Part shown: positions 26,558 through 61,333 of the stretch, one piece after another
Layout: every line of letters begins with the position of its first letter
How positions within the stretch are numbered: position 1 is the first letter of the stretch
From: an uncultured Oscillospiraceae bacterium
GTDB taxonomy: Bacteria; Bacillota; Clostridia; Saccharofermentanales; UBA5734
DNA length: 64,000 nucleotides
Direction: 5' to 3'
Assembly (NCBI GenBank): GCA_964652975.1
Contig: CAZZCN010000006.1
Coordinates: 4,099 to 68,098, forward strand
Position numbers and translations under genes: made by a program
Notes under the pieces: generated by a model
The model's database searches: none
What the model was told of the DNA's origin: nothing
Seen by the model: only the letters and a program-made list of their open reading frames with translations

Positions 26558-26573
26558 ATCTCAATCCCTCTTT

Positions 26574-27800: not shown

Positions 27801-27893
27801 TATTCTGTATATCCTCCGTATTAAAATTATTTTTTCTCGTAAACGCCACACATCACATAATTACCTGTTGCTCTCAAACATCTGTCTAACTGA

Positions 27894-38520: not shown

Positions 38521-38524
38521 TTGG

Positions 38525-39256: not shown

Positions 39257-39258
39257 GG

Positions 39259-39996
39259 TTAGTTCTCCGGCTTACTGAATCGCTTGAAAAGTATACTGTT
39301 TTCCTTGTGGATGTGCGTGAAAATATTTTTCTCGAGAGCCTCAAGTTCTTCATATGCTCTAACGTATGTGAGGCATGCACCTGCAGGTGGTGAAAAATCC
39401 CGTGTCACCTTCTGGATGCTTTTCAAGATGTCTCCTGCTGCATCGTGCTCATTCTCGGTGGATTCAATATAGTCAGTTATTGCATCGAAAAGCTTCGGAG
39501 ACTTTGTGTTTTCGTATTCAAGCATCGCAGGAAAAAGCTGCTCTTCTTCTTTGATGAGATGTTCTTCAAGCTCTGTCTTAAGCAGTCCGAATAGATGATG
39601 GACCTCCAGTAATTCTTCGCTGTGTGAAGCAAAATGCACTTTCAGAATTTTAAATACCAATGCGTCGATTTCATGTAAAGCCTCTTTTGTGTAGACATGG
39701 TGTGTATCCAAAATATGATTAATCAGGTCTTCATTTGAAAACTCATCATAATTCACTGTATCCTCGGAACTAAGGGAACCACTTGCTCCAGTCAAAAATT
39801 CTTCGTAAGCATTTTTCAGCTCTTTCATAACTGCTGCAGGACTGACTCCCGCCTTTGATGCTGCAGTATTCAATGTATCATCGCCGGCACAGCAATAATC
39901 AATTTTAAACTTATTAAAAACATCTGCTGACTTAGGAAAAAGTGTAACCATGCTTCCGACTGTGTTTTCTATTTCGAATATTTTATTCTCTTCCAT
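39259..39996 (-). CDS. Iron-sulfur cluster repair di-iron protein (RIC / ScdA / YtfE family)
   Basis: 245 aa. It has an N-terminal ScdA_N motif (FNKFKIDYCCAGDDTL) and a hemerythrin-like C-terminal domain with H...H...E...H...H...E ligand spacing (HHVYTKE, HFASHSEE, EEHLIKEE, ENEHDAAG, HIHKEN). Confidence 0.9.
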   Translation of the reverse strand: MEENKIFEIENTVGSMVTLFPKSADVFNKFKIDYCCAGDDTLNTAASKAGVSPAAVMKELKNAYEEFLTGASGSLSSEDTVNYDEFSNEDLINHILDTHHVYTKEALHEIDALVFKILKVHFASHSEELLEVHHLFGLLKTELEEHLIKEEEQLFPAMLEYENTKSPKLFDAITDYIESTENEHDAAGDILKSIQKVTRDFSPPAGACLTYVRAYEELEALEKNIFTHIHKENSILFKRFSKPEN

Positions 39997-42019: not shown

Positions 42020-42066
42020 CTAAAATCCTCCTCTTTCTGTTGTTATATATTTTATGGTTTATGATA

Positions 42067-45173: not shown

Positions 45174-46208
45174 ATGCCAAATATTAAAATGATAGCAAGT
45201 CTAGCAAATGTTTCTCCCGGTACGGTTTCCAATGTTTTCACACACAAGAGGGCGGTAAGCGAAGCAAAAAGAAATCGCGTGTTGGAGGTATGCAAAAAAC
45301 TTAATTACATGCCAAGTGTCTTAGCGTCCAGCATGATAACCAAACAAACCAATTTTCTAGGATTTTTCCTTAAAACAAACGACGGTACTTATGACAATCT
45401 GGAAAGCGACATGATCAGGGGCGCATCCATGGCAGCTTTAAAACATTTCAAAAATATAATATTGTATCCTGATTTTCTTGATATCTATGACCCTAACACG
45501 GTTCTTAGAACCGGTTGTCAACCTATCGACGGAGCCATCATAACCTTGCCCAAATTAAACGACAAAAGAATCGATGTGTTTTCAACCAATACAATACCTT
45601 ATGTAATCATCGGCACCCCCTTTCAGAAAAACACTCATCCTTATTATATAGACATCGATAATGAAAACATATCCTATAAGCTTACCGAACATCTTATTAA
45701 AAACGGTCACAAGAGCATAGTAATGATTAATTACGAAAAGGGCTTCACCGTTACCAAGCTTCGTAATGACGGATATGTAAAGGCTTATGCCGATGCAAAC
45801 CTCCCACTTAATCAAAAACTGATTTTCAATGTAGGCATTTCAGAGAGAGACGGAGCTGCATGCATAGATAAACTGATCAGGACAAAAACCTTTTTTTCTG
45901 CTGTGATTGTAAGTATGTCCAATGTTGCAAAAGGAGTCTATAAAACTTTAAAAAATTACAATTTGATCGTTGGGGAAGATATTTCTGTAGCATCCTTTAA
46001 TCTTGATTTTTTTGAACTGAGCCCTCCTTTGACCACTAGCGTGGTGGATTATTGTAAAATCGGAGAAACGGCTGTTGATTTGCTTCAAAGTATAATAAAA
46101 AGCGAAGAAGTAATTACCACAGGTGTTATACAGGAAAACTCATTTGATTTTACCGAATCATGCCAGCCGTTCAATCCAAAGCTTTATGAGAAATTCTGTT
46201 TGTTGTAG
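45174..46208 (+). CDS. LacI family transcriptional regulator
   Basis: 344 aa. N-terminal HTH: IKMIASLANVSPGTVSNVFTHKRAVSEAKRNRVLEVCKKLNYMPS. The C-terminal domain is PBP-like. Confidence 0.9.
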   Translation: MPNIKMIASLANVSPGTVSNVFTHKRAVSEAKRNRVLEVCKKLNYMPSVLASSMITKQTNFLGFFLKTNDGTYDNLESDMIRGASMAALKHFKNIILYPDFLDIYDPNTVLRTGCQPIDGAIITLPKLNDKRIDVFSTNTIPYVIIGTPFQKNTHPYYIDIDNENISYKLTEHLIKNGHKSIVMINYEKGFTVTKLRNDGYVKAYADANLPLNQKLIFNVGISERDGAACIDKLIRTKTFFSAVIVSMSNVAKGVYKTLKNYNLIVGEDISVASFNLDFFELSPPLTTSVVDYCKIGETAVDLLQSIIKSEEVITTGVIQENSFDFTESCQPFNPKLYEKFCLL

Positions 46209-46278: not shown

Positions 46279-48945
46279 TTATTTAAACTTGATTTTCATT
46301 GTGGTTATACCAAAGGCTTTCGCTTTAATAGAAGTATCATCCCGGCGGTCATCTACACGTTTTTCATTAAAGTCAACCAGGTCGATATAATCAATTTCTT
46401 TAACAGATGAAACGGATATATTTCTTTCCTCCTGTGAATTCCAAAATCTGAATATTATGCTATCACCGTCGTCTGAAGGCACCAGGCAGGAATTATAAAA
46501 TGCTGTTTCATCACTGATTGTAATCAATGAAGTCTCGGTTGGAAGACTGCCACTGTGTATTATATCACCTTCTACAACCAACGGCGAACGATAATCGGCT
46601 GATTTGTCAATCAGACAACCCTTCCTGTAATCACCCTCATGTACAACAATTGCATAATCAAATTCGAATTTTCCGATGCACTGAGCTTTTGGTGTAGGAT
46701 AATCAGCTCCTGCAGGATAGCCGATATAACCTGCAGCCCTTAGCAGTGAAATGTCAAGCTGTATGCCGTCATCATTTTCAATGGCTTCGTAAGCAGGCAA
46801 CCCTTTGGTTATAATTCCAAGGCCTCGTTTTTCGTCCGTAATATCAACAAAATATTCAAATGGTACATCACACCAGGTCTTTTGAGAAACCGCTACAGGT
46901 CTTTTAATCACATTGAAATGGTCATAGGCATAAGAAAATTTGGTTTTTAGTCCTGTGTCAAAAGCAAGTCTCAGAAAATGATTTTCACAGTTATTCTCTA
47001 TTTCAATGTGCATTTCAAGCCGGTCAACATTTGAATAAAGTGTTGCATGTTGTACTATGCGAATAACATCTTTATCTTCTGATCGGCTTGTGTTTGTTGA
47101 GGTTTTAGGCAGCACCCAGTCAAATTTTGCCTTATAAGTAATTTTATAAGCGGTTTTTTCTTCAAGCATCCAACAGGTATTACAGCTCTTGCTGTCATAT
47201 ATGTCATTTGTTTCAAAACTGGCATGGTTATAAAGACCTCCTGTTTCCGCTCTGTCAACGAAGTAATTTTGTCCGTAATAAGTATGTGATGCGGTTTTAT
47301 CAGTAATATTCATTGTTCCGTTGGTGTTCAAAACCACCTTTAATTTACTGTTCTCCATTCCATGGTCGAAAACACATAAATCAGTATCTCTTCTGTTTCC
47401 AATTTTGAGACTTGATTTATGAACAAACCAGTAGGTTTTATATCCTATGGCCGGTATATTTTCCGCATTAAACTCAACATCCAATACAGTAAATATCTGG
47501 TCATCAGGTTTTTCTGCAATTTCACATTTTGAACGGATGGCTGCAAGTTGAGAATTCATCATATAAACGCTTTCAAGATCTTTGTTTTTTCTGACAACCA
47601 GTTTTATTTTTGCAGATACTTCGTTTCTGTTCTGGTCAACCAGTACATAATCAGCCGGGTCAAAACGTTTAGGAATGCATGCAAGCGATTTTACGACCTT
47701 GGATGTTTTGTGCCCCAGAGGATTAATTACCGTAAGGCAGGCACCCGCATCTTTCATGATATTATTATCGATCCTGCCGGCCAGTGTTCTAACGGCATCC
47801 TTTAAAATATAGCTTCCGGTATCCTTAATATAGTGGTATCTTGTCATTATATCCTCATAGACTCGGTCTATGCTGCATCCACATATTGAATCATGGGCAT
47901 GATTGGCGATCAATAGTTTCCAAAGTTTGTCCATCAACCCCTTTGGATATTTAAAGCCCGCAAGCTTGGATGTGATGGTCAATGTCGGTTCTAAAACTCT
48001 TTGTAACAGCATTTCACATTCATCGTTAATTTGTTTCAGAGCCATATGTGAAGAGAGCGTGCCGGCGAGGTCTGCCGTCTGTAAATTCTGCCCACGCATT
48101 TCACCTTTATAATCAGGGAGAATGATGTTTTGTGCCCCAACCGCTTTCAAATATTCCTCAGGAGTAGTTAAAATCAGTTCAAATTCTTCTTGGTTTGCGT
48201 TTATATAATTTATTATTTTTGTCAAATTGGCTTTCGGCTCCATATGGTCAACCCCTACACCAAAAAACAAATTATCGGTTGCTGCATACGCATGCTGTGC
48301 CTTTGCAACCTCCACAAACTGTTTTGTAATCTGTGCGTAATCTATCTCCGGGAGATTAAAAATATCACTCCATATGTTGCTGTAAGCCAGAAACAAGCCT
48401 CCTGCATAACCGTGATTTGAGGCGATTACCGAGGAATTATCGTCGGTTTTCCAGTTCAATTCAAAATGCTTTAAATGCTCATTAAAGCCCGGCATTCCTC
48501 TGCCAAAAACTGCATATTTTATACCAAATCCATTTAAAAACATTGGCAGGCTGGCTATGCTGCCAAAGGAATCGGGAACATAACCTAACTGCATAGGTCT
48601 GCCCCCCAGCTTTTTAACAATTGACACACCGTATTGTATATTACGAATGGTTGACTCTGCATTCTCCAGGAATTGGTCTGCCAGAACATACCATGGCCCG
48701 GCAACAAGCTGACCGTTCTGGAGAAAATGAGAAATTTTATCCCTGTTCTCAGGTTTGATTTCTAAATAGTCCTCAAGGGCTATCACCTGTCCATCTATCA
48801 GAAAATGATAGTTTGGGTCATTTTCTAAAATATCCAATAAATTGTCCATTAGATTGACTAGTCTCACCTGATACTGTCCCTGTGTCATAACCCATTCCCT
48901 GTCCCAATGCGTCTCGGATGTAATAAATGCTTTAATCTTTTTCAT
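46279..48945 (-). CDS. GH38 alpha-mannosidase
   Basis: 888 aa: ITSETHWDREW...LIDGQVIALEDYLEI...GQLVAGPWYVLADQFL...HDSICGCS. These are typical GH38 N-terminal catalytic motifs. Confidence 0.9.
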   Translation of the reverse strand: MKKIKAFITSETHWDREWVMTQGQYQVRLVNLMDNLLDILENDPNYHFLIDGQVIALEDYLEIKPENRDKISHFLQNGQLVAGPWYVLADQFLENAESTIRNIQYGVSIVKKLGGRPMQLGYVPDSFGSIASLPMFLNGFGIKYAVFGRGMPGFNEHLKHFELNWKTDDNSSVIASNHGYAGGLFLAYSNIWSDIFNLPEIDYAQITKQFVEVAKAQHAYAATDNLFFGVGVDHMEPKANLTKIINYINANQEEFELILTTPEEYLKAVGAQNIILPDYKGEMRGQNLQTADLAGTLSSHMALKQINDECEMLLQRVLEPTLTITSKLAGFKYPKGLMDKLWKLLIANHAHDSICGCSIDRVYEDIMTRYHYIKDTGSYILKDAVRTLAGRIDNNIMKDAGACLTVINPLGHKTSKVVKSLACIPKRFDPADYVLVDQNRNEVSAKIKLVVRKNKDLESVYMMNSQLAAIRSKCEIAEKPDDQIFTVLDVEFNAENIPAIGYKTYWFVHKSSLKIGNRRDTDLCVFDHGMENSKLKVVLNTNGTMNITDKTASHTYYGQNYFVDRAETGGLYNHASFETNDIYDSKSCNTCWMLEEKTAYKITYKAKFDWVLPKTSTNTSRSEDKDVIRIVQHATLYSNVDRLEMHIEIENNCENHFLRLAFDTGLKTKFSYAYDHFNVIKRPVAVSQKTWCDVPFEYFVDITDEKRGLGIITKGLPAYEAIENDDGIQLDISLLRAAGYIGYPAGADYPTPKAQCIGKFEFDYAIVVHEGDYRKGCLIDKSADYRSPLVVEGDIIHSGSLPTETSLITISDETAFYNSCLVPSDDGDSIIFRFWNSQEERNISVSSVKEIDYIDLVDFNEKRVDDRRDDTSIKAKAFGITTMKIKFK

Positions 48946-48974: not shown

Positions 48975-49952
48975 CTATCCCACAATGCCTGCACGCTCTA
49001 CACTTTGAACGAAAAAGCGCTGTGAGAATATATATACCAGTATAATAGGCGTCATAATCATCAATGCCGCCGCTGAACGTACAGAATTTACAAATACGGG
49101 ATTATATCCATCGACATCTGAAATTCCAAGACTCGGCAAAATGCGCACATCCCAGTTATAAACCCCCATATATTTAAGCGGGAGTAAATCAGGTGAAGTC
49201 AAAAACAATCCTGAATAGAAGGCGTCGTTGTATTGCCATACAAAAGAAAACAATACCACTGTAATGATTGTCGCAATAACATTGGGTACCATGATCCTTG
49301 AAAATATCTTAAAGGTACCTGCTCCGTCAACGTATGCGGCCTCTTCGAGCTCCTTGGGCATATTTCTGAAATTCTGTCTGAAAATATATATAAAGAGGCC
49401 GTTTTTTATTCCATTACCCGTCAAAGCCAGCAGATACATCGGCGTGTATTCATTAATCATATTAAGCGGGTGTCCTGTGATAATCGAAAAAAGTCCAAAA
49501 ATATCAAAGAAACGAAACCTGAGATAAAGAGATGCCATATATAGCTGGGGAGGTACAACAAAAGTAAAAATCACAAGGGCGAAAAAAATGTTTTTGCCTG
49601 GAAAATTAAACCGACCGAATCCGTAACCGGTTACTATGCATACAAATGTCTGGATAATCGTGATTGTAACGGTTAGAACTGTTGATGTAAAAAGACTTTT
49701 CCAGTAATCAATTATCAGGTCGGCTATATGAAACGAAAAAACGGAGAAATTTTTGGGGATGAGAAATACTGATGTGTCCAGCATATCAGCTCTGCTCAAG
49801 AACGAAGAGGAAATCATCAGGTAAAATGGATACAAAATTATAAAACTCAGTCCAGCAAGAAAAAACAACCGTACAAAGCTCCAGGAAATTTTGAGCAGTC
49901 TCTTTTTATATTTTGTAAGCATTTGAATAATTTTACTTTTAAAATCAGTCAT
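48975..49952 (-). CDS. Carbohydrate ABC transporter permease (pair 2, second subunit)
   Basis: 325 aa. EAA loop: FRNMPKELEEAAYVDGAGTFKIFSRIMVP. Confidence 0.9.
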   Translation of the reverse strand: MTDFKSKIIQMLTKYKKRLLKISWSFVRLFFLAGLSFIILYPFYLMISSSFLSRADMLDTSVFLIPKNFSVFSFHIADLIIDYWKSLFTSTVLTVTITIIQTFVCIVTGYGFGRFNFPGKNIFFALVIFTFVVPPQLYMASLYLRFRFFDIFGLFSIITGHPLNMINEYTPMYLLALTGNGIKNGLFIYIFRQNFRNMPKELEEAAYVDGAGTFKIFSRIMVPNVIATIITVVLFSFVWQYNDAFYSGLFLTSPDLLPLKYMGVYNWDVRILPSLGISDVDGYNPVFVNSVRSAAALMIMTPIILVYIFSQRFFVQSVERAGIVG

Positions 49953-50862
49953 AATAAAACACCTTCTTTGATACTAGAATTCCAGCTGTCAGCAGGATGA
50001 TCGAAACAATCAGGAAATATATCCAGGCCAGGGCGCTTGCATACCCAAACTGTATATCCACAAAGGTTTTTCTGTATATGTACTCAAGTGTCGGGTTCCC
50101 TACGCTCATAAACGAATCCACTATTGTATAGATAATATTCACCATAATCAACGGCGAGACTATCGGGAATGTCACCTTCCAGAATGTCTCCCATCCCGTT
50201 GCGCCTTCAATATATGCGGCCTCATACAACGAGGGGGAGATTCCGTTCAATCCTGCTATAAAAATAAATATCTGAATCCCGGAATGGCTTATAATGGCAA
50301 AGACTCGTTTCATCGGCTCGATTAAAAAATTTATCAGATTGGCAGGTATGCCAAGTTCCAAAAGATATTTTTCTATCTGTAAGTTTTTAAGAAGTTCGTT
50401 TACACTTGAATTATCGGCAAGAGTTTGAGTCAATTGCTGAGTATTTACACCTGAGACTTGTTGCTGAAGTCTTAAAAACACCTCTGAGGATAAAATAATA
50501 GTCAGGAAGAATATGATTTTGAAAACACCGGCTCCTTTGAATTTGTTACTTAAAATGACCGCCACAAAGAAGCTAAACACCAGGATAAGCGGGACATCTG
50601 TTATAAGCCTCTGAAGAGAAAAAGTTAAATTGACAGGGAATGACGGATCTTTGACAAATGCATAAATGTAATTGCCAAAGCCTGTAAATGTACTTTCAAT
50701 GCCGTTGTTGCCAATTCGAATTTCGCTTAGGCTGAATTGAAATGTCTGTATTATTGGAATCATAAAAAACAATACGAATCCAACACCCCACGGAATCAAG
50801 AAGAGTAATCCCTTTAAATTTTTCTTTGTAGTAAGTGTAAGGACCTTTTTCAAAATTTTCAC
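49945..50862 (-). CDS. Sugar ABC transporter permease (pair 2, first subunit)
   Basis: 305 aa. EAA loop: ISPSLYEAAYIEGATGWETFWKVTFP. The start is uncertain (GTG 50862 or TTG 50853). Confidence 0.85.
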   Translation of the reverse strand: MKILKKVLTLTTKKNLKGLLFLIPWGVGFVLFFMIPIIQTFQFSLSEIRIGNNGIESTFTGFGNYIYAFVKDPSFPVNLTFSLQRLITDVPLILVFSFFVAVILSNKFKGAGVFKIIFFLTIILSSEVFLRLQQQVSGVNTQQLTQTLADNSSVNELLKNLQIEKYLLELGIPANLINFLIEPMKRVFAIISHSGIQIFIFIAGLNGISPSLYEAAYIEGATGWETFWKVTFPIVSPLIMVNIIYTIVDSFMSVGNPTLEYIYRKTFVDIQFGYASALAWIYFLIVSIILLTAGILVSKKVFYYD

Positions 50863-50874
50863 CTCTTTTATATT

Positions 50875-53331
50875 CTAATCTACCAGAAATCCTTTTCCAG
50901 GGACAACGACTCCATCTTCCAAAAGGCAATCTGCACCGCTGTAATTGACAGTGACCTTTACTCCGTTTTCATAAATTGTCTGGTAGATATTATCATGCAA
51001 CCTGATATAATTCACTATCGGTATGTCTGCAAGCGGCTGTAAAACTTGACTGGCAGATTTTTGCATGGTCACGGCTTTTTCGATCCAGTCCAAGTAATGT
51101 GTCGATGTCAACTGGGTATAGCTTGAATCAATGATTTTTGAGGAATCAGCATAGGTTTGCACAAAATAAAGCGACGCTCCGTAGGAAACAGCCCTTAAGT
51201 AGTCGTTGGTAAAATCAGAGGAAAGATTAATAGGATTACCTGCATAGTTGAAAAGTCCGTGAAATACCATTTGAAAAAAAGGTATCTCCTCATCAGCGGT
51301 AAAATATTTACTGCTGTATAGAGGTGCGCCAACAGCTCCATTCGCATACCTGCCTGTTCTTGAAGTGACACCATTCATTATAATTTTCTTATCGGCTGCA
51401 AGTTTTTGCAGTTGCTTCTCTATTATCTGAGTCGCTGTCTGACGGTCAATCAGATTCTTTTTACTATAGTCGGCAAAACATTGGTTTCCCATATCTGCCA
51501 GGAAGATATTTGTGATGGCAAGCTTGTTATAGGAACTTAAAAATTGATCTGTCAATTTATTTAAATATGCGGGAGATATTATGTACTTTGTCGCCTGTGT
51601 TTGATTTGTAAGCATATCTTTAAGATATAGTCGGGAATAATTCTGTTCAATGGTTTTGGCAGCTTCGGAATCCAGAGTAAGACCCTTATCTGTACCTGCC
51701 GTCAAAAACGAGACGGATGGGTATAGGTCGTTTTGAACTCTTGCCAGTTTTTTTAGTTCTGCAAGGCCGCCCAATTCACCCTCAACTCTTATCTTGTCCG
51801 GGACATTCTGATTATAGGCACCGTTAAACCAGCCCGAATAAATCAGTTTAATGTTTTCGATACCGGATGATCTATACTTGTTTGCAATCAATTCCGCCTG
51901 CTTGAAAGTGGTTAATGCAGTCATTCCTGTGTAGTTGATTCCCAAAAAACTTTTAGAACTTTCAATCGCCCCCACCAGCTCCAGGAAAAACGGGATTTCA
52001 TTTTCTTTTTCTGCTTTCGGATAGCCTCTTTTGATCAATTCATCCCTATAGTCTTTTGCCATGCCTTGATAGGATGCGTTCTCGTTATAAAGAAAGCCAT
52101 ATGTTGCTTCAATATTTCCACTGTAGGCCTTGTCTTGGATCACCATTACATTTGAAGGATTGGAAGGGTCACCTAATTTGATAATATCCTGATTTTTTAA
52201 GATGAAGCTTGGAAAAACAGAATTGTATGAGCTGTTTCTTCCAGCCCTGGTCACATTTATAGTGGCAATTGCATCAGCGTCATTTATCTCACACCAAAAT
52301 GCCATGCCTCCGCTTTTCAGTCCAAACACCGGCATCGAAACAGGCATGGTGAACCCTTTCAGTTGTGCCTGTCCGATGTTTTTGTCATCAGAATAAACCG
52401 GCAAGGAAAGCTGGGAATTGATATGAATATTTTTATCAAAATTTATAAGGGATCCGCAACCGTCAGGAAGGACGATATAACCTGGCAGATCACTTTTTGC
52501 GGCTCCGAAAAATTCAAGTAGATTTACATTGGTTATAGGATTTTCCTTAGGTTCTACAATTTGTGCAACTGGTATTTTTATATTCAGTCTCCCGCTTTTA
52601 ATTGTATATTCCACCGGTATCATAAAGTACAGTTTGTCGGAAACCGACACCTTTTCACCAAATTCAGCCGCATCCGATTTTAAATCAGTCGTGGTATAAC
52701 CCGCCTTTTGAAATGCCTTGACTGCCTTGGTCGCTTTACTGCCGAATATATTGTTTTTCCAGCGAAACGCTTTTGCTTCCTTGTCTTGCTCATAACAGAG
52801 GACTATTGCCGATTTATCATCTTCACTGAGTTTTCGATTATTTGTTACAAACATATCAAAGCGTTTTTCCGAAATGATTTTTGGAATATCGTCTATTGTC
52901 AGGTCCATGTCACCGAAAGTGTATTCTATCCGCAAACCATTTTTCAGTTTAAATACTTTAAACTGATTTTTAAAAACACAATCATTAAAGCTGTACATAT
53001 TTTGCAAAGCACGGTTTTTGTAATATGAAAAGGAGAGTTGCGACCTCATTATGTCGATATATTCAGTATTGGCCAAAGCATCTGCATCTGGATTTTGCGG
53101 ATTGGTCATCCATGCTGCATTGTTGATTTTATCCTCGACAATCAAGTTTAAAGTATTGAAATCAAGCCTCAGTCGGTAACCGGTGTCTTCATAAACATCA
53201 GTTATATCCTTGCCGTTGATCTGCACATATTCAACAGAATCAGTATTGGCGGGAGCAATGGTTTGACCGGTCTTGCATCCACTTAGCATCGTGCATATTA
53301 TCATAATCAGGAAAAATATCCTCTTCATCAA
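50875..53331 (-). CDS. Large lipoprotein, DUF5696-like (possible TIM-barrel glycosidase-like C-terminal half)
   Basis: 818 aa with a lipobox (ICTMLSGC). Blocks such as IKLIYSGWFNGAYNQ, FLADMGNQCFADY and PFFQMVFHGLFNYAG are present. The family name is recalled from similar Clostridia/Paenibacillus loci and is not verified. Confidence 0.55.
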   Translation of the reverse strand: MMKRIFFLIMIICTMLSGCKTGQTIAPANTDSVEYVQINGKDITDVYEDTGYRLRLDFNTLNLIVEDKINNAAWMTNPQNPDADALANTEYIDIMRSQLSFSYYKNRALQNMYSFNDCVFKNQFKVFKLKNGLRIEYTFGDMDLTIDDIPKIISEKRFDMFVTNNRKLSEDDKSAIVLCYEQDKEAKAFRWKNNIFGSKATKAVKAFQKAGYTTTDLKSDAAEFGEKVSVSDKLYFMIPVEYTIKSGRLNIKIPVAQIVEPKENPITNVNLLEFFGAAKSDLPGYIVLPDGCGSLINFDKNIHINSQLSLPVYSDDKNIGQAQLKGFTMPVSMPVFGLKSGGMAFWCEINDADAIATINVTRAGRNSSYNSVFPSFILKNQDIIKLGDPSNPSNVMVIQDKAYSGNIEATYGFLYNENASYQGMAKDYRDELIKRGYPKAEKENEIPFFLELVGAIESSKSFLGINYTGMTALTTFKQAELIANKYRSSGIENIKLIYSGWFNGAYNQNVPDKIRVEGELGGLAELKKLARVQNDLYPSVSFLTAGTDKGLTLDSEAAKTIEQNYSRLYLKDMLTNQTQATKYIISPAYLNKLTDQFLSSYNKLAITNIFLADMGNQCFADYSKKNLIDRQTATQIIEKQLQKLAADKKIIMNGVTSRTGRYANGAVGAPLYSSKYFTADEEIPFFQMVFHGLFNYAGNPINLSSDFTNDYLRAVSYGASLYFVQTYADSSKIIDSSYTQLTSTHYLDWIEKAVTMQKSASQVLQPLADIPIVNYIRLHDNIYQTIYENGVKVTVNYSGADCLLEDGVVVPGKGFLVD

Positions 53332-53338
53332 AACACCT

Positions 53339-53959
53339 CTAAAATCTTTGTCTTAATTCTTTAAGCATCATCATTGTAAATTCAAGCATCTGTGAAAATA
53401 TATTGAAAAAAACCATAATGATAAACACCAATATCAACATGCTGCATATTGTAAGTACGGATGTGGCAAATGCTTTTGACAAGGAATAATCATGTATCTG
53501 CATGACACCGACAAACAAAAGAAATATAAACCATACCCAGGCAAAATTCAGAAAAAACGAAAGATATACGCCCTCATCCATAGATGCTATATTTGAAAAC
53601 AGAATCGCAGGCACTCTCACTAGTGTCATGGGCAGACAGGCATATCCGAAAACCATCACAATATCCTTAAAAAACCCCTTTCCGTCCATTAAAGTCGTAA
53701 CTGACCAATTGGCGACACAAAAGAGAAAGAAAACAAGAAGAACCTGTCGAAGCTCCATGATGACATCAAGCTTAACATTATACTGAGGATTAAAAAGAAA
53801 TGAAAGCCCGGTTTTCAGATAAACATTGGTTATGAACCACAACGCCATATACAAAAAGGCAATTGACAAACTTCCTCTATTCTCGTACTTTAAATCCCAA
53901 AAGCCATCAAGAGGGTGCGTCAACACATGGAAGGAAAAACGAAAATTCTTTCTAGTCAT
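53339..53959 (-). CDS. Yip1 domain membrane protein
   Basis: The ORF is open to 54016, but ATG 53959 follows GGAGGTGctgataATG. FRFSFHVLTHPLDGFWDLKYENRG and 5 TM helices are typical of Yip1 family proteins. Confidence 0.7.
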   Translation of the reverse strand: MTRKNFRFSFHVLTHPLDGFWDLKYENRGSLSIAFLYMALWFITNVYLKTGLSFLFNPQYNVKLDVIMELRQVLLVFFLFCVANWSVTTLMDGKGFFKDIVMVFGYACLPMTLVRVPAILFSNIASMDEGVYLSFFLNFAWVWFIFLLFVGVMQIHDYSLSKAFATSVLTICSMLILVFIIMVFFNIFSQMLEFTMMMLKELRQRF

Positions 53960-55406
53960 TATCAGCACCTCCGAGCCTTCCGTGCTTCCTGTGTTTATAG
54001 AACAGTCTGAATGCAAATAATAAAAAAGCTATAATAATGAGTCCGGTCAAAAGCCTGTTAAGATTTTCCCTTAAAAATTGATTGCGAAATTCCTTGAAAG
54101 CCTCGCTATATCCGCTGACATAATTTTCTCCGCGGTAATTTCCCAATTTAAAATAGTGCATTGCCTGTTTATAGTCGTTATTCTTATAATATATACTCCC
54201 AATCTGCATATATCCCAGTTCAAAATTCGCATTAAACCGTGTTATCTCCTGCCAGAGCCCCATGCTTTTCTGATATTCACCCTCGTTGTAAAGATTATAT
54301 GCCTGTCTGATTTTTGTAGCGTATTCGGACATTTTAAAGACAGTGATATTTGAATTCAGCATATCAGTCACGTATAGATAATCTCCATCAATCTCTATAG
54401 CGCTGGGAGACTTGAATGTCCCCAGCTGATTCCCCAGGTTTCCGAACGCATAGAGCATATATCCGTCCTTATTAAATACATTTATGTTTCCTGTTGCGTT
54501 ATCTATATAATAGTAGTTGTCGTAATTATCTACACAGATATCTGTAATCATTGTATTCCGGGTGATTTGAAGCATGTTGCTGTTAACAGTCAAGATGTTT
54601 TTCCCATCCGGGCTTAGCTTTTTTACCTTGTTGGCTTCATTGGTAGCTTGTGTCACAACATATAAAAATCCTGTCTTGTCCATGGTGACATTTGTATATT
54701 CCAGAGGGATAAGCCTGGTCATCTGCTCCTTTTGCTGTTTGGATAAAATCCTTTTCCATATTAATTCAAATGGTGACGGATTTACCATGTTACTACCCAG
54801 AAACCCTAGAAACGTACCATCGGAATCAAACTGCATAATGCCGTTAAACTGGTCTTTTGCAATCACGTACAGCCGCTTTTCATTGTCAACTACAAGTTTT
54901 ATTGGTTTGAAAACATAATTTTTACCAAAAATGTCACTATCAGGAACTTTTAAGACCGATAAAACATTCAGCTCGGTGTCAAATCTCACAATTCTCTGAT
55001 TTCCTGTATCTGCAACATAAATCTCGCCATCGCTGCAGACAAAAACTCCCTTAGGCTCAGAAAAGCTTGAAATTTCTCCGGAAACCTTGAAATTTTTTAT
55101 GACTTTCGTTACTTTAAATTCTGCATTGGTTACAACCACTTTATTGTCGACAGAATCGACAATATAAGCGTTATGGGTATCATCGATAAAAATGTCTGCC
55201 GGACTTTTCAGACTTTCTCCAATGTAAACCGAATCATATGAAGCCACCGGTATAAAAGGTGACGGACAGGGAGCCTGTTTCAGATAGCCCGTTCTTGTCG
55301 TGTAATTATACGCCTGGAATGGAAGGTCTGCAGATACATTCAGAAACAGTAACTGAAACACAACGGCTATGCTTGTTATGCAGGTTATAAATTTTAAGGG
55401 CTTCAT
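53952..55406 (-). CDS. Secreted NHL-repeat beta-propeller / TPR protein with a C-terminal TM anchor
   Basis: 484 aa with a signal peptide. NHL-like repeats include PKGVFVCSDGEIYVADTGNQRIVRFD and PSAIEIDGDYLYVTDMLNSNITVF. A TPR-like segment reads YNEGEYQKSMGLWQEI...GSIYYKNNDYKQAMHYFK. The C-terminal TM helix is LLTGLIIIAFLLFAFRLF. Confidence 0.7.
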   Translation of the reverse strand: MKPLKFITCITSIAVVFQLLFLNVSADLPFQAYNYTTRTGYLKQAPCPSPFIPVASYDSVYIGESLKSPADIFIDDTHNAYIVDSVDNKVVVTNAEFKVTKVIKNFKVSGEISSFSEPKGVFVCSDGEIYVADTGNQRIVRFDTELNVLSVLKVPDSDIFGKNYVFKPIKLVVDNEKRLYVIAKDQFNGIMQFDSDGTFLGFLGSNMVNPSPFELIWKRILSKQQKEQMTRLIPLEYTNVTMDKTGFLYVVTQATNEANKVKKLSPDGKNILTVNSNMLQITRNTMITDICVDNYDNYYYIDNATGNINVFNKDGYMLYAFGNLGNQLGTFKSPSAIEIDGDYLYVTDMLNSNITVFKMSEYATKIRQAYNLYNEGEYQKSMGLWQEITRFNANFELGYMQIGSIYYKNNDYKQAMHYFKLGNYRGENYVSGYSEAFKEFRNQFLRENLNRLLTGLIIIAFLLFAFRLFYKHRKHGRLGGADND

Positions 55407-55427: not shown

Positions 55428-56333
55428 TTATTCTTTAATTCCAGACGATGTCATTGTTTCCATAATCAGTGACTGTGACAGTATGAAAAATGTCACAGGA
55501 ACTATCATCATAATTACAGCTGCAGCCGCACCCGCACCCGCCCTTATTATTCCGCCTGCTGAAATCTGGCTGAATGCATATCCAAGAGTCTTTAACTCCT
55601 CTTTATAAATATAGGGAGTATTTCCAACGGTCCACAGATTCTGAAAAGCAAATATCGCCAATGTAAGCCAGGCTGGCTTGACCTGTGGAAAAACAATAAG
55701 CCAAAAGGTCTTATATTCGCTTGCACCGTCTATTTTTGCAGCCTCCAGAACAGTATCGGGTATTTGCACCATGAACTGTCGCATTAAAAACAGCCCCAGT
55801 GCTGTAGCGAACGTAGGAATAATAATGGACTTATAGTCATCAAGCCAATTCAATGAAGAAATAGTCATATAATTTGCAACGTCACCCACCACAGGATTGA
55901 ACATCAATGCCAGTGTGATAAATCCAAAAAACAAAGGTATCCCGGGAGCTTTATGTTTTGCAAGCGGATAGGCAGCCATCGAGCACACCAATACATTTCC
56001 AACTGTTCCAATTATTGTAATCAGTATAGTGTTGAATATATATCTTGAGAATGGCACCCAGGTTGTGGACATAAGATCAAAAAGCATTCTATAATTTGAA
56101 AGCGTAGGGTTTTGCACAAATATTCTGGGAGGATAGATAAATATTTCATTAATGGGCTTGAATGCCTGATTAACCGCCAAAACCATAGGCATGATACTGA
56201 ACAGGCCAAAAATTGACATGATCAGGATTATGACAAAATTCCCTGCGTTGGAGCGATTTGCACTTTTACCAGCCCTGCTCCCTATGAATAATCTCTTTAA
56301 AACGGCCATTGGCTTATATTTTCTCTTCATCAC
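55428..56333 (-). CDS. Carbohydrate ABC transporter permease (pair 1, second subunit)
   Basis: 301 aa. EAA loop: IPDTVLEAAKIDGASEYKTFWLIVFP. Confidence 0.9.
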   Translation of the reverse strand: MMKRKYKPMAVLKRLFIGSRAGKSANRSNAGNFVIILIMSIFGLFSIMPMVLAVNQAFKPINEIFIYPPRIFVQNPTLSNYRMLFDLMSTTWVPFSRYIFNTILITIIGTVGNVLVCSMAAYPLAKHKAPGIPLFFGFITLALMFNPVVGDVANYMTISSLNWLDDYKSIIIPTFATALGLFLMRQFMVQIPDTVLEAAKIDGASEYKTFWLIVFPQVKPAWLTLAIFAFQNLWTVGNTPYIYKEELKTLGYAFSQISAGGIIRAGAGAAAAVIMMIVPVTFFILSQSLIMETMTSSGIKE

Positions 56334-57259
56334 TTACCAACCCTTCTCAAAAAAGACTGCACCAGTTTGTTTGATCCGATACTTAATAGAAACAGGATTG
56401 TTGCAATGGCGCATGCATAACCTCTTTCAAAACGAATAAATCCATAATCTCTTACGCTCTGCATAATAGTCTGTGTTGCGTATCCTGTGCTTGGAAAGCC
56501 TGTCATGGCGGTTGGAATGGCCTCTACTCCAAATGACGCGGTAATTGAAAGAATTGCCGAGAGTAAAAGGTGTGGCGTCATAGAAGGCAGGGTGATGTAC
56601 CAGAGTTCCTGCCACCGGTTTTTAACTCCGTCCACCATACCAGCTTCATACAATTGTCTGTCCACTGTTGCAAATCCCGCTCTCATGGCCAAAAAGGATG
56701 TCCCAAGGCTCACCCAGAGCTGAACTATTATAACAATCGCCATCATATATTGAGGATTCTGAAGCCAGGAAACCGGCTCCCTTATAAATCCGAACTGCAA
56801 CAAGAAGCTGTTCAAGTATCCGTAAATGTCTGCATCGAATATGATCAGCCAAATGGTGAATACACTTCCTGAAATGGAAGGGGCATAAAAAACAAGAGTG
56901 GTAACCTCTCTGAAACCTTTCGGTATTTCGTTGATCACCCAGGCAAAAAACATGGAGAGAAAAAAACTTAGAGGACCTGTGATCAGAGCAAAGATAAGGG
57001 TGTTTTTGACAGCTATGCCAAAAACATCATCGTTTACAAAAAGATTAATGTAATTTTGCCACCCTAAAAACTGAGGAATTTCAAATACATTATAGCTTGT
57101 ATAACTCAAAATAATTGAAAGTAGTACAGGAAAAACCGAGAAGAGGGAAAAGATTACGAAAAAAGGCAGCATAAGTATATAAGAACTTCTGTAAGATATA
57201 ATTTCTTTCAAAAAACTTTTTTTATATTTCGGAATTGATTTATCAATCATTTTATCCAC
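56330..57259 (-). CDS. Sugar ABC transporter permease (pair 1, first subunit)
   Basis: 309 aa. EAA loop: VDRQLYEAGMVDGVKNRWQELWYITLP. Confidence 0.9.
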   Translation of the reverse strand: MDKMIDKSIPKYKKSFLKEIISYRSSYILMLPFFVIFSLFSVFPVLLSIILSYTSYNVFEIPQFLGWQNYINLFVNDDVFGIAVKNTLIFALITGPLSFFLSMFFAWVINEIPKGFREVTTLVFYAPSISGSVFTIWLIIFDADIYGYLNSFLLQFGFIREPVSWLQNPQYMMAIVIIVQLWVSLGTSFLAMRAGFATVDRQLYEAGMVDGVKNRWQELWYITLPSMTPHLLLSAILSITASFGVEAIPTAMTGFPSTGYATQTIMQSVRDYGFIRFERGYACAIATILFLLSIGSNKLVQSFLRRVGK

Positions 57260-60125
57260 CTAAATTCATGTTAAATTCTTGTCTTCTTGCCTTGATTTCA
57301 TTGTTGATTTTTTTATTCCATTCATAAAGAATTCCCCTTGGGTCACCGCCTGTTCCTACAGAATATCGCAAGGCTGTGCAGAGATATCTTCCTACAACAT
57401 AGCTTCCCGGCAGTTCCGGCAGACCTTTGACATAAGCCCTTTGCTCGTTCATGGTTTTCATTGTCCTGGCCGGCCACGAAAGCTCGGAAAAGGCCTCAAG
57501 ATTTGCAGTTGGCACTCTTCCTGACGGTCCTTGCAGTATCTCCATCTCTCTTGAATACTTGACCTGCATTTCTTTTGATGTCCACCACTTCAAAAACTCC
57601 CAGCTTTTGTCAGGCTGGCGTGTGTTTTTGAATATAACCGCTCCAGTTGTGCTTCCTACTTCACTGCAGTCAATGCTGCCATCGTCTTGCATGGTTCCTA
57701 AAATCTTAGCTACATCCCACATTCCTTTTATTTCAGGTGCGGATATGACAAGCTGGTTATAAAAAGTGACCGGAGCTATTACAATTGGTGCCTCCCCTGT
57801 GCGGAACCGGTTAAATGCATTCATTTTTTGCGTGATTTTATATTTGGTGTACAGATCTGTCCACTTCTCAAATGCGTTCAACCCCTTTTTTGTATTGACA
57901 AGGGTTTCGCTTTCTTCATCATTATAGAATTGTCCTTTTGACTGATATAAGAACATAAGGTATGTCTCTATGGTATCTTCGGTTATATTAGGAAGACCTA
58001 TGTCATAATAGTTTTTATGCAGCTGAAAAAGAATACTGTAAAGCTCCTCCCATGTCCTTGGGAGTTCGATCCCGAGTTCGTCAAGTATGTCCTTTCTGTA
58101 GAACATCATCATGAATGTCTGAGTCTCAGGCAATGCGTACAGATGTCCGTTCAACGCAAAATTCACATAAGAACTTTTGTCAAATCTTTTTAAAATCTCA
58201 TCTATATCCGAAAAGTTATTTAAATCATAGATGGCATTGCGGATTCCATAATTTACAGGCATGCTTCTGTCCTGCCCTAGTGCAACATCGGGACCCTTGC
58301 CGACTGCGACTGCTGGTAAAAGAACATCATTGTTAACAAGCCGGACATCGACACCGATCTTCTTTTTGCTGGTAAAGGAATTGTCGATCATATCCTTTAT
58401 AACCTGTGCCTGGTCGCGTCCGGTGTTCAGCCAGAGGGTTATGTTCTTGTCTTTGCTGTCAGCGGAGCCGAGGTTATTGTAATCGCTGAAAAAAGAATTG
58501 ATAAAGGAACGGAATTCATAGCCTGCTTTCTGCAAAAAGCTTTCGTTGGCTGTCGGTACGGCTGATTCGGGAGATGAAATCTGAATATAATCCAGTAATA
58601 ACGGCTGTTTGGTTGCCGATAATATAAAATTTGCAACTCCGCTTATGTTTGTCTCAAACGAGCCAAGACTTGTGGGAATTGTAGAACTGTCACCTGCAAA
58701 CTTATCAAGCTGTAAAAAAAGTTTTTGGAAGGTTATATAATTACTGCCTTTTCCGCCTGACTTGCCTGCTACTATATCAGCAATCTTTTTCAATCTTGCG
58801 CTTTCAGTTTTAAAAATACCCATGCATTCAGGGATCTGCTGTTCAATGAAATAATCGCGGTTAGGGTCGGGATAAAGACCGACAACCATTCTTATTTTAC
58901 GGGTTATCGAGTTCAGATTTTTTACGATTTCTCCTACTTCTATCAATATATCAGTCAGATACCCCAGGTTGTTTTCGAGTGAAATGGTATGATTACCTGC
59001 TGATAAGTAAAATTTATAAGGAGTCTTGTTTCCAGGTGTAACAATCTGCCATGCGTCATCGTATCCTACCTCGATCTGTTTTGCTTCGGTAAAAGGGATT
59101 TCACCATCTATATAAAAGCTTCTGGTTGATATGCTGTCATCAAGATAATTTTGCTTGCATCTCAAATTTATCTTGTATAATCCTGCATTCTCAACTGTAA
59201 ACTCCCATGTCAGTCTTTGTCTTGGATTGCTCCAATTAATTCCGCCTATAGTGTTAAGTTTTACGGTTGCAAGCGAATTTGGAATAGTTATTGGTGAGGA
59301 TCTGTCATTAAAAGGATATAGGGTCGGGTCGGACTTATATTTTGCATCCTCTCCCTGTAACTCGATTTTTACATTTTTTGCCACATCCTTGTAACCCATG
59401 ACATCCCACTTAGATAAAACATCCATATACCCGGACGGTTGAATTTTCTTAAATAATCTAATCTTGCTTATCGCCATAGGTTCATTGACGGCATTAAGTG
59501 TTATAGTGTTTTCCCCTTCTTTCAAGTAAAAAAGAAATGGCTCGTCGTAATACCCCTGATTGTCGGTAAACTGCCCGGTCATCCAAACTTGTTTTTCATT
59601 CTGTTCAGGCTTGAATTCATTGCCTTTGCCGTCCTTTACAACTGCCTGGGCATTTTGCCACAACCGCTGAAAAACAATGCTAGATGCTTCAGAAAAGGGA
59701 ATTGCTCCATTTATAAGTATTTCACGTTCAATAGGGTTGCCCTTGCCTTCGAGGGGGTAATAGTCTATCTCAATATTGTACAATCCGGGTGTTTTAACAG
59801 TTATACGATAGGTTACTGAACTTGATTCTCCTGTTGTTATAATGCCTTCGCCTTTTCCATCAAGATTGTCGATAATGCTAACGCCGCTGCTTTTCTCCCT
59901 GTCATAGCTCCGTCCTGAAACGATAATCGGTCGATCCGGTCTTAAGGCGCTGTTATGCTGCATTCTATAATCGGAATAATTGCCGATTATAATTGCACTG
60001 GGAACAGAGGCCTTTTTTATTATACCGGTACTATCCGTAGCATAGGCGCCCGGATAAATATCAGTGAATATAAATAAGCTAATTGTAAAACATATAATAA
60101 ATTTAAATAACCTTGATCGTATCAT
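57252..60125 (-). CDS. Giant extracellular solute-binding protein with a duplicated carbohydrate-binding-like N-terminal region
   Basis: 957 aa with a signal peptide. Two similar modules are present: YNIEIDYYPLEGKGNPIEREILINGAIPFSEA and YKINLRCKQNYLDDSISTRSFYIDGEIPFTEA. The C-terminal 450 aa or so form an SBP family-1-like domain. Confidence 0.7.
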   Translation of the reverse strand: MIRSRLFKFIICFTISLFIFTDIYPGAYATDSTGIIKKASVPSAIIIGNYSDYRMQHNSALRPDRPIIVSGRSYDREKSSGVSIIDNLDGKGEGIITTGESSSVTYRITVKTPGLYNIEIDYYPLEGKGNPIEREILINGAIPFSEASSIVFQRLWQNAQAVVKDGKGNEFKPEQNEKQVWMTGQFTDNQGYYDEPFLFYLKEGENTITLNAVNEPMAISKIRLFKKIQPSGYMDVLSKWDVMGYKDVAKNVKIELQGEDAKYKSDPTLYPFNDRSSPITIPNSLATVKLNTIGGINWSNPRQRLTWEFTVENAGLYKINLRCKQNYLDDSISTRSFYIDGEIPFTEAKQIEVGYDDAWQIVTPGNKTPYKFYLSAGNHTISLENNLGYLTDILIEVGEIVKNLNSITRKIRMVVGLYPDPNRDYFIEQQIPECMGIFKTESARLKKIADIVAGKSGGKGSNYITFQKLFLQLDKFAGDSSTIPTSLGSFETNISGVANFILSATKQPLLLDYIQISSPESAVPTANESFLQKAGYEFRSFINSFFSDYNNLGSADSKDKNITLWLNTGRDQAQVIKDMIDNSFTSKKKIGVDVRLVNNDVLLPAVAVGKGPDVALGQDRSMPVNYGIRNAIYDLNNFSDIDEILKRFDKSSYVNFALNGHLYALPETQTFMMMFYRKDILDELGIELPRTWEELYSILFQLHKNYYDIGLPNITEDTIETYLMFLYQSKGQFYNDEESETLVNTKKGLNAFEKWTDLYTKYKITQKMNAFNRFRTGEAPIVIAPVTFYNQLVISAPEIKGMWDVAKILGTMQDDGSIDCSEVGSTTGAVIFKNTRQPDKSWEFLKWWTSKEMQVKYSREMEILQGPSGRVPTANLEAFSELSWPARTMKTMNEQRAYVKGLPELPGSYVVGRYLCTALRYSVGTGGDPRGILYEWNKKINNEIKARRQEFNMNLGG

Positions 60126-60151: not shown

Positions 60152-61333
60152 TTAACCGTCAGACTTTATCCCCGCCCAGGCAAAATAATCAGACGGCACA
60201 ACTATCACTGCTGTCATTTCAGGTACAGATGCCACCTTGTGGAGATTTTTGTCCTTGTATTGATATATTGTCTGACTGTCTTCGCTGCGGTAATAGAAGT
60301 TCTCTAAATATCCATTTTTTAGAGCAATATACCCTTCTGTCATTTGTTGATAATACATCGGATTGAGATTTTCCTTTTCTCTGCCCGGTACTACTTCCTT
60401 TAGTATTACAGCTTCTATGCCGGTTTCCTCACAATGCTCGTTCCAGCCGGTAATTACAATAGTCTTTGGCTTACGCTTAACCGCCTCCAGCCAAGCATTT
60501 TGATATCGCTTGCCATTTTCTCTTGAGACAGGTTCATATTCGGTGCCCATATTGTTATGACTTCTTGACCAACCAGCAGTTATACCATAAATTTCGGACT
60601 GAGGATATTGAGTGTCAAAAACCCATCCAAACATACCGATGTTATCAAGATTATATTTTCTGATATATGGCGTGCCGAGTGAAGTCATTCCTGCTGCAGG
60701 TCTGATTGTAAATCTCTCGTCCTTGTAAGCAAAATTTATTGGGTTGTTAAAATTTACAAATAACGGTTTGCCGTTCCATATAAAATAGTTATCTTTATAC
60801 ATCCTTGAGTAGCCGTAAAAAATATCCATTTCCTTTTTCATAAGTTCCGCATTCTTTTCAATCAGAGGACGGCCTCCGGCAAAACAGAGCTTAGGTGCTT
60901 TTTCACCTAACTCGGAGGCAATCTCGAATCCATTGTCAATAGCTAATGCAAGTGCTCCATTGTCAACCATATGATAGTTTGTATCGTCATAAATAAGGTA
61001 GTCAATCCCTATACTTTTAAGATAAGTAAAATCCTTTTTTATTTTAACCTTATCATCTGATGAATAGTAGCCATCTACAACAGGCTTTGATCGTGATTCT
61101 ATATCCCAACGTTCTGGATACTCGTCGTCATGCTTTGAATAAAAAACTTCATACCAGGTTCCAACAACTGATGAGTAATATTGTTCGATTGTATCTTTTG
61201 CCGTCGAAGAGACTGCCTTGCTATCAGCAACCGGTTTACTGATCACCGAAGAAGGGGTGTTGTTGCATCCTGCAATAATTGTACATGATAAAAGAATTAT
61301 AGATATCAAGCCTTTGTTCTTAAATTCCGTCAT
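60152..61333 (-). CDS. Lipoprotein with GH99 / WbsX-like glycosidase motifs
   Basis: 393 aa with a lipobox (LLSCTIIAGC). VVDGYYSSDDKVKIKKDFTYLKSIGIDYLIYD resembles the GH99 PxxGxYxSxDxxVixxH...GID block. ITGWNEHCEETGIE aligns with the GH99 catalytic NEWHEGTQIE motif. Confidence 0.55.
   Translation of the reverse strand: MTEFKNKGLISIILLSCTIIAGCNNTPSSVISKPVADSKAVSSTAKDTIEQYYSSVVGTWYEVFYSKHDDEYPERWDIESRSKPVVDGYYSSDDKVKIKKDFTYLKSIGIDYLIYDDTNYHMVDNGALALAIDNGFEIASELGEKAPKLCFAGGRPLIEKNAELMKKEMDIFYGYSRMYKDNYFIWNGKPLFVNFNNPINFAYKDERFTIRPAAGMTSLGTPYIRKYNLDNIGMFGWVFDTQYPQSEIYGITAGWSRSHNNMGTEYEPVSRENGKRYQNAWLEAVKRKPKTIVITGWNEHCEETGIEAVILKEVVPGREKENLNPMYYQQMTEGYIALKNGYLENFYYRSEDSQTIYQYKDKNLHKVASVPEMTAVIVVPSDYFAWAGIKSDG

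Follow-up and report, generated by a model that had tools for sequence, protein, structure and literature searches.

Within a 64,000-nucleotide stretch of contig CAZZCN010000006.1 from an uncultured Oscillospiraceae bacterium (hereafter the window), three contiguous minus-strand genes encode an NHL/TPR beta-propeller protein, a Yip1-family membrane protein and a DUF5696 lipoprotein. Our analysis identifies this triad as the fixed core of one cassette of eight genes, or seven where the NHL and Yip1 genes are fused, whose other members encode a giant solute-binding protein (SBP) and two pairs of ATP-binding cassette (ABC) permeases. The reading that we favor, and to which we assign a probability of roughly one half, is that the cassette specifies a membrane-tethered module for glycan capture and processing that is wired to a twin ABC importer, with the NHL-Yip1 protein as its scaffold. 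The triad had originally been put forward as part of an undescribed system; no account of the eight-gene arrangement was found in the searchable literature, and a full-text literature search returned no paper containing the term "DUF5696".

Composition and conservation of the cassette

The cassette of the window begins with the gene for the 957-amino acid (aa) giant SBP (SBP957; 57252-60125), in which an N-terminal region of ~550 aa bearing a weak CBM35-like match (CBM_35, E=3e-5, residues 301-392) precedes a C-terminal SBP domain (SBP_bac_1, E=2.8e-19, residues 584-854). Giant SBPs reach 1,110 aa in some of the related loci. Next are permA1 (56330-57259), a MalF/UgpA-like permease with an NCBIfam UgpA/GlcT-like match and six hydrophobic segments, and permA2 (55428-56333), a MalG/UgpE-like permease (NCBIfam UgpE, E=1.4e-20). 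The genes for the NHL/TPR protein (484 aa; 53952-55406), the Yip1 protein (206 aa from its ATG; 53339-53959) and the DUF5696 lipoprotein (818 aa; 50875-53331) follow, and the cassette closes with permB1 (49945-50862), a divergent MalF-like permease gene that starts 12 nucleotides beyond the end of the DUF5696 gene, and the MalG-like permB2 (48975-49952). The NHL gene starts 21 nucleotides after permA2 and overlaps the Yip1 gene by 8 nucleotides. The DUF5696 gene lies 7 nucleotides beyond the Yip1 gene if translated from the TTG at 53331, or 10 nucleotides beyond it with the NCBI start at ATG 53328 (817 aa); a third start call, that of JGI, gives a protein of 804 aa, and the lipobox cysteine is kept under all three. 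These coordinates bear out the original prediction of three packed or overlapping genes, spaced by 21, -8 and 7 nucleotides, between two complete permease pairs.

To determine the distribution of the cassette, 185,579 species-representative genomes were scanned for a degenerate pattern derived from an alignment of 12 closer DUF5696 sequences. The scan yielded at least 589 confirmed loci, the best 80 of which (L001-L080) were kept for the genome-locus counts given below; their open reading frames (ORFs) were called and then searched with the window proteins, gene order being scored only where the flank sufficed. All 80 loci belong to Bacillota and come from Paenibacillus, Cohnella, Gorillibacterium, two Bacillus sp. 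isolates, Mahella, Lachnospiraceae, Oscillospiraceae, Hungateiclostridiaceae and Defluviitaleaceae. The order giant SBP-permA1-permA2-NHL-Yip1-DUF5696-permB1-permB2, on one strand, was found in 64 out of 64 loci with enough flank. The same core surrounds metagenomic DUF5696 homologues at 22-26% identity and was recovered again when loci were picked independently through NHL homologues. Chance adjacency of the triad is ruled out by the invariance of this order over the 64 loci and at such low DUF5696 identity. No locus with sufficient upstream sequence lacked a giant SBP, and a Yip1 domain occurred in 80/80 loci, always alongside ABC permease genes. The expected synteny of the triad with two permease pairs and a giant SBP therefore holds across Bacillota, Paenibacillus and Clostridia included. 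The triad had been pictured as wedged between two permease pairs, and so it is; what does not stand is the notion of two independent transporters, as the triad is the core of a single eight-gene unit. In at least two assemblies the cassette occurs twice, as L007 and L032 on one Cohnella yongneupensis contig and as L035 and L079 in the metagenome-assembled genome OH_SBB_71, an arrangement that resembles the paralogy of polysaccharide utilization loci (PULs).

With a family-1 SBP and two BPD_transp_1 permeases carrying EAA loops, the permeases being present twice, the cassette has the hallmarks of a CUT1-type importer. Sequence topology analysis placed an EAA loop in each of the four permeases (EAG-type at residue 205 of PermA1, EAAKIDGA at residue 197 of PermA2, EAAYIEGA at residue 214 of PermB1 and EAAYVDGA at residue 204 of PermB2), and both pairs therefore look competent for coupling to an ATPase. 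PermB1 is 23% identical to PermA1, and PermB2 22% identical to PermA2; permB1 is an ancient paralogue of permA1. No gene for a nucleotide-binding domain, and hence no cognate ATPase, was found inside any of the 80 cassettes; CUT1 systems of Bacillota usually come without an ATPase of their own and share MsmX. The only nucleotide-binding domain gene in the window (37750-38520) is part of a separate NMT1-type system comprising an SBP, an ABC ATPase and a permease (36815-39996, plus strand) and followed by a ScdA/hemerythrin gene, which represents a different transporter class.

A second SBP of ordinary size, represented in the window by SBP471 and in related loci by its homologues, often accompanies the cassette. 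In 45 loci, mostly from Paenibacillaceae, its gene immediately precedes that of the giant SBP, and in 18, mostly from Clostridia, it immediately follows permB2, never at both positions, such that an ordinary SBP adjoins the cassette in 63/64 genome loci. In contrast, no second SBP was found within 10 kb in 6/7 metagenome loci with enough flank (L084-L089), among them the three closest relatives of the window. The second SBP is therefore frequent but facultative, and the invariant unit is made up of eight genes.

Architecture of the three core proteins

Pfam matches and topology agree with what had been expected of the triad, namely an NHL propeller with TPR repeats and a C-terminal transmembrane (TM) segment, a multi-pass Yip1 protein and an 818-aa lipoprotein, except that the TPR models fell below their cut-offs. 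None of the three proteins matched an unrelated, well-characterized family in Pfam or NCBIfam. The NHL match (E=5.7e-10) scored 39.2 bits against a cut-off of 20; the protein has a signal-like helix at residues 6-24 and a TM helix at residues 452-470. The Yip1 match (PF04893, E=1.4e-13) scored 51.6 bits against a cut-off of 28.6 and covered positions 1-172 of the 173 of the profile; with four to five hydrophobic segments, the window protein is a full-length, multi-pass member of the family. All three products had been placed at the outer face of the membrane or within it, and tethering is predicted both here and in relatives: unfused NHL proteins are membrane-tethered in 52/55 cases, the window DUF5696 protein has the lipobox LSGC (Cys19), and 78/79 DUF5696 homologues have a hydrophobic N-terminus, 26 of them with a lipobox and the others with a signal or TM anchor.

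That the triad encodes three separate proteins is true of the window but not in general. The NHL and Yip1 genes form a single ORF of ~690 codons in 21/80 loci, and 64 of the 120 best NHL homologues listed from a collection of 5.8 billion proteins carry both PF01436 and PF04893 in ~680-735 aa; where named at their source, these fusions usually go by "YIP1 family protein". Because fusions are this common, the NHL/TPR and Yip1 proteins are likely to act as one functional unit, effectively a single protein elsewhere. AlphaFold2 gave a confident model (pLDDT 88, pTM 0.82) of P0038, a fusion with 41% identity to the NHL protein of the window, from an alignment of 61 sequences. In this model, a beta-propeller spans residues 17-353 and four TPR-like helices residues 355-415; they are followed by a long TM helix at 427-476, two short helices on the cytosolic side and, at 521-695, a membrane bundle of five helices. 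The split between the two window proteins is located exactly after the TM helix. The C-terminal tail of the NHL protein and the N-terminus of the Yip1 protein are both basic, which fits a cytoplasmic junction between the two. In Foldseek searches, the propeller of the model resembled the NHL domains of TRIM71, Thin and PknD (TM-score 0.8, normalized to the target), as expected of a six-bladed NHL propeller. The possibility that it is an SGL/lactonase-type enzyme was rejected, in that the Pfam SGL and arylesterase matches were short and at repeat level and Foldseek returned NHL binding domains only.

DUF5696 matched PF18952 with 550.6 bits (E=6e-165) against a cut-off of 25.6, over positions 2-612 of the 612 of the profile. 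The family is large, amounting to 7,380 clusters at 50% identity (E<=1e-3), and includes longer proteins with 130-400 extra residues, such as those of L083 (P0026, 1,221 aa), L088 and L089 (944 and 1,056 aa). The AlphaFold2 model of the window protein (pLDDT 89.7, pTM 0.86) shows a three-domain fold built around a (beta/alpha)8 barrel. Its best Foldseek matches, with TM-scores of 0.68-0.72 (normalized to the target), were the glycoside hydrolase (GH) family 129 enzymes ZgGH129, a 3,6-anhydro-D-galactosidase (5opq, E=5e-33), and NagBb, an alpha-N-acetylgalactosaminidase (5wzq, E=7e-25); they were followed by GH101 (5a57, E=1e-16), GH36 and GH31. DUF5696 has in common with GH129 and GH101 an N-terminal beta-sandwich, a (beta/alpha)8 barrel and a C-terminal beta-sandwich, but is ~150-200 residues longer than the GH129 enzymes and only ~12% identical to them, and similarity at the level of a sequence family was not found. 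A search of the Protein Data Bank (PDB) with the single window sequence gave no match, and none of the Pfam GH families cross-matched any of 30 DUF5696 members even at E<=1. A 30-sequence DUF5696 profile run against PDB sequences detected ZgGH129 (E=9e-9) and NagBb (E=3e-5), each in fragments, and a profile of the barrel alone aligned only with the beta2-beta3 region of NagBb (E=6e-4). Since the profile matches are remote and fragmentary and the identity is ~12%, DUF5696 is best regarded as remotely related to GH129 but outside that family. To our knowledge, the characterized GH129 enzymes have not been described as fixed parts of ABC-importer operons.

Among 109 DUF5696 sequences, the most conserved acidic residues are D316 (94%), D621 (88%), D680 (83%) and D290 (83%), D621 and D680 reaching at least 90% in a closer set of 70 sequences. 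D613, at the end of barrel strand 4, and E681 are each conserved in 71%; the motif around the former, LSLRD, is reminiscent of GH13-type nucleophile motifs. The window protein keeps all six residues, of which D613, D621, D680 and E681 are candidates for catalytic positions. D613 and E681 were considered as a co-varying catalytic pair and rejected, their 2x2 table (61/16/16/16) showing no co-variation. In the clade associated with GH53 genes (L040, L055, L060, L061 and L080), the aspartate at the end of barrel strand 4 is replaced by threonine (IGT, not LRD); judging from these sequences, the members of that clade may have altered catalysis or none.

A proposed tethered module for glycan capture and import

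In the reading that we favor, the giant SBP would capture oligo- or polysaccharides at the cell surface by means of its CBM-like N-terminal half, and DUF5696, held by a lipid or TM anchor, would trim or split the captured glycan beside the membrane. Import of the products would then run through the two type-I ABC importers, for which a shared ATPase of the MsmX type, encoded outside the cassette, would supply the energy. A single membrane protein, split here and fused elsewhere, would be made up of the propeller, the TPR hairpins, the TM helix and the Yip1 bundle; as a scaffold or assembly factor, it would tie the enzyme to both permease pairs, in parallel to YknW. Specificity would be set by the co-diverging cassette proteins together with the variable enzymes encoded nearby. 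The GH129/GH101-like fold of DUF5696 fits the surface module acting on a polymer that the original prediction had envisaged; its catalysis, and the hand-off of products toward the transporters, we infer. Suggestive of the scaffold role are the membrane anchoring of all parts, the frequency of the fusions, the confinement of the ectodomain's structural relatives to binding proteins, and the precedent of YknW. This Yip1-family protein of Bacillus is reported to modulate the assembly of the ABC transporter YknXYZ (PMC4887032), and Yip1, which had been described as best known from eukaryotic vesicle trafficking, is thus not confined to that process. The likeness between the YknWXYZ operons of B. 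subtilis and B. amyloliquefaciens and the cassette is one of family and operon context, a bacterial Yip1 gene standing in both with genes for ABC-transporter membrane subunits. YknYZ, however, is a MacB-type exporter working with a membrane-fusion protein, whereas the partners in the cassette are type-I importer permeases and SBPs, and no membrane-fusion protein or MacB-like gene was found in the cassette. Unlike the cassette protein, YknW is without an NHL/TPR ectodomain partner, and its system has no glycosidase-like component.

In the SusCD "utilisome" of Bacteroidota, an enzyme at the cell surface, a protein that binds the glycan and a transporter are physically assembled. The proposed module shares with it the concept of products passing straight from enzyme to importer. 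The proteins and the envelope are different, though, as the cassette encodes neither a TonB-dependent transporter nor a SusD protein, and an assembly that has been demonstrated for Sus is hypothesized here. A bolder version, which we entertain only as a rather doubtful proposition, would unite the eight proteins in one membrane supercomplex, a Gram-positive analogue of the utilisome, in which Yip1-NHL/TPR would clamp a GH129-like enzyme onto an ABC permease pair, depolymerization and import would be mechanically coupled, and DUF5696, instead of a classical binding protein, would deliver substrate to pair B.

Several observations weigh against the favored reading. None of the acidic residues of the DUF5696 barrel is invariant; ~30% of the members have Thr, Ser or Gly instead of D613, E681 is likewise variable, with losses independent of those of D613, and the window protein has a serine at position 716, where 93% of the members have glutamate. 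HMMER failed to align the GH129 catalytic segment, the full profile aligning only with the segments that flank it; catalysis by DUF5696 is therefore putative, and part of the family may lack activity. A search seeded by a ZgGH129 fragment returned nothing. The Foldseek relatives of the NHL propeller (TRIM71, Thin, Brat and the PknD sensor domain) are binding modules, with no enzyme among them. Finally, one chassis serving unrelated glycans (beta-mannan, alpha-mannan, galactan and those of the GH16 and GH78 loci) is odd for a bond-specific glycosidase.

In the main alternative, unlikely in our estimation, DUF5696 would be a mainly non-catalytic receptor that docks on pair B, replacing an SBP or working beside one; its GH-like barrel would bind the glycan and pass it directly into the translocation pore, and NHL-Yip1 would stabilize the docking. 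The order DUF5696-B1-B2 mirrors the order SBP957-A1-A2, and DUF5696 is always membrane-tethered and encoded directly upstream of a permease pair, as SBPs are. Moreover, D613 and E681 are lost in 30-40% of the members while the cassette remains intact, and pair B is without a dedicated SBP in the six metagenome loci that have no second SBP within 10 kb. The ordinary SBP found beside nearly all genome cassettes argues the other way, its position at the B-pair end in Clostridia being suggestive of pair B having an SBP of its own. So does the conservation of D621, D680 and D316 (83-94%), as would be expected of an active site. We also know of no type-I importer that uses a non-SBP fold as its receptor.

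The part of the proposal concerning NHL-Yip1 has an alternative of its own, according to which this protein, instead of being a scaffold, would be an extracellular sensor or gate whose propeller detects a polymer or the state of the cell surface and which switches the two importers on or off through intramembrane contacts. The presence of the PknD extracellular sensor domain among the Foldseek matches, the lack of an enzyme-like signature in NHL/TPR-Yip1 and the description of YknW as modulating, not forming, its transporter (PMC4887032) would suit such a role. We nonetheless judge it quite improbable: NHL-Yip1 has no cytoplasmic output domain, the cytosolic segment of Yip1 spanning ~30 residues in the window protein; adjacent LacI or histidine kinase/AraC genes already provide transcriptional control; and the 8-nucleotide overlap of the NHL and Yip1 genes suggests a tight translational coupling that would keep their production in step with that of structural components.

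Genomic context, probable substrates and significance

The cassette of the window appears to belong to a larger transcription unit. Upstream of SBP957, on the same strand, are genes for a GH99-like lipoprotein (60152-61333; PF16317, E=1.7e-5, below the cut-off; lipobox IAGC) and for SBP471, an ordinary family-1 solute-binding lipoprotein of 471 aa (61367-62782; SBP_bac_1, E=3.6e-20; lipobox LSGC). Downstream of permB2 is a gene for a cytoplasmic GH38 alpha-mannosidase (46279-48945), which has the N-terminal, middle and C-terminal GH38 domains and is without a signal sequence. From SBP471 through GH38, each intergenic gap measures 33 nucleotides or less, no intergenic terminator-like hairpin was found, the terminator count equaling the shuffled expectation, and a promoter-like site (TTGAAA-16-TATAAT, 62830-62803) precedes SBP471. 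This looks like a single 11-gene operon ending with GH38. Downstream of it, on the opposite strand, is a gene for a LacI-family regulator (45174-46208), assigned by homology to flanking LacI-type ORFs of related loci and likely to be the repressor of the locus; as a phmmer query, it matched flanking ORFs in 9/80 loci. Beyond the LacI gene and on the same strand, the region 40271-44982 encodes a DUF3604 protein and a 971-aa cytoplasmic GH106-like protein (42067-44982), whose match to GH106, an alpha-L-rhamnosidase family, is only partial. Just upstream of SBP471 lies orf368 (62827-63933), encoding a C-terminally anchored protein with no Pfam match. The source genome is Bacillota-like, with a GC content of ~39%. 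Two adjacent MoeA-type molybdopterin genes, one of them fused to a PBP-like PF12727 domain (24629-27851), are unrelated to the glycan locus.

The environment of the cassette was surveyed by clustering the 453 flanking ORFs of the 80 loci and annotating the cluster representatives. The largest cluster, a LacI regulator with LacI helix-turn-helix and Peripla_BP_3 domains, is represented in 32/80 loci, in 24 of them directly upstream of the cassette. Most other large clusters are carbohydrate-active enzymes (CAZymes), namely a GH26 mannanase with a CBM35 module (20 loci, usually directly downstream), GH38 (10-12 of the 80 loci, downstream and concentrated in one DUF5696 clade), a GDSL esterase (7 loci, mostly downstream), a GH2 beta-mannosidase (6 loci, mostly downstream) and GH113 (6 loci, downstream); further neighbors include GH76, GH53, a Melibiase_C protein, a DUF5060 protein and histidine kinase/AraC two-component pairs. 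DUF5696 clades obtained by hierarchical clustering follow these neighbors. Two are associated with GH26, GH113, GH2 and GDSL genes, a combination that, on annotation, indicates beta-mannan, and one each with GH38, GH76, the Melibiase_C protein and GH53, while more distant cassettes adjoin GH16, or beta-helix, Melibiase and dockerin proteins. Because the clades track the flanking CAZymes, we regard the cassette as a reusable, substrate-variable chassis. Because one chassis occurs in GH53, GH76, GH16 and GH78 loci, debranching of galactomannan by DUF5696 as a generic alpha-galactosidase was rejected as its general role. The link to mannan or N-glycans that had been drawn for the triad holds for many cassettes but not for others, which stand with GH53, GH16, GH78 or beta-helix enzymes.

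In the window itself, the substrate is probably an alpha-mannoside glycan, perhaps one containing rhamnosides, given its GH99-like lipoprotein, GH38 and GH106-like partners. GH38 would, from its distribution, be a variable, substrate-specific partner of the cassette. The nearest relatives of the window cassette (39-47% identity) are accompanied by GH78 rhamnosidases, GH99-like proteins and orf368 homologues; together with the GH106-like gene of the window, the rhamnosidases hint at a rhamnose-containing substrate for this clade. GH99-like homologues flank the cassette in L086 and L087, two of the closest relatives, and the GH99-like gene of the window, between its two SBP genes, is on this comparison apparently a lineage-specific passenger. 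Homologues of orf368 also adjoin the cassette in the closest relatives, one of them forming the end of a 1,995-aa protein in L085, and the orf368 and GH99-like products may be clade-specific surface partners of the cassette. That the cassette would instead recycle or remodel the glycans of its own envelope (secondary cell-wall polymers or exopolysaccharides) is highly improbable, in spite of two stand-alone cassettes that lack adjacent CAZymes and lie beside VanY, sortase-like or FemAB genes, as hydrolases of plant and fungal glycans (GH26, GH113, GH53, GH76 or GH38) and sugar-responsive regulators adjoin most cassettes on the same strand, and as the occurrence of two cassettes in at least two assemblies, in one case on a single contig, resembles paralogy of the PUL kind.

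The general layout of the locus is that of Gram-positive PULs (gpPULs), an example of which is provided by the beta-mannan loci of Roseburia intestinalis. Like the gpPULs of Roseburia and Eubacterium (PMC5320581), it combines a regulator, a CUT1-type importer with its SBP, and CAZymes, has no ATPase gene in the locus and exists as paralogues for different glycans; the gpPULs described, however, have one SBP and one permease pair and are without a fixed NHL-Yip1-DUF5696 insert, whereas two permease pairs and an SBP of ~950 aa are invariant in the cassette. A recently reported Paenibacillus xanthan locus likewise has an ordinary single-pair transporter (PMC12827396). The locus fits the gpPUL idea, and we see a moderate chance that it represents a categorically new, enzyme-coupled ABC importer built on a Yip1 scaffold.

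Bacillota rank among the major degraders of glycans from plants and fungi, both in soil and in the gut, and far less is understood of their machinery for uptake than of the Bacteroidota Sus systems. Three of the eight invariant proteins of a cassette that is spread over at least 589 species-representative matches are without an assigned function. Their study may yield a new glycoside hydrolase family, a reason for the hard-wiring of two permease pairs, a concrete role for a bacterial Yip1 protein and a genomic marker of glycan use in Paenibacillus and gut Clostridia. If the supercomplex were to prove real, it would constitute a new class of ABC-importer accessory, bring with it a new GH family and give bacterial Yip1 its first defined role in nutrient uptake.

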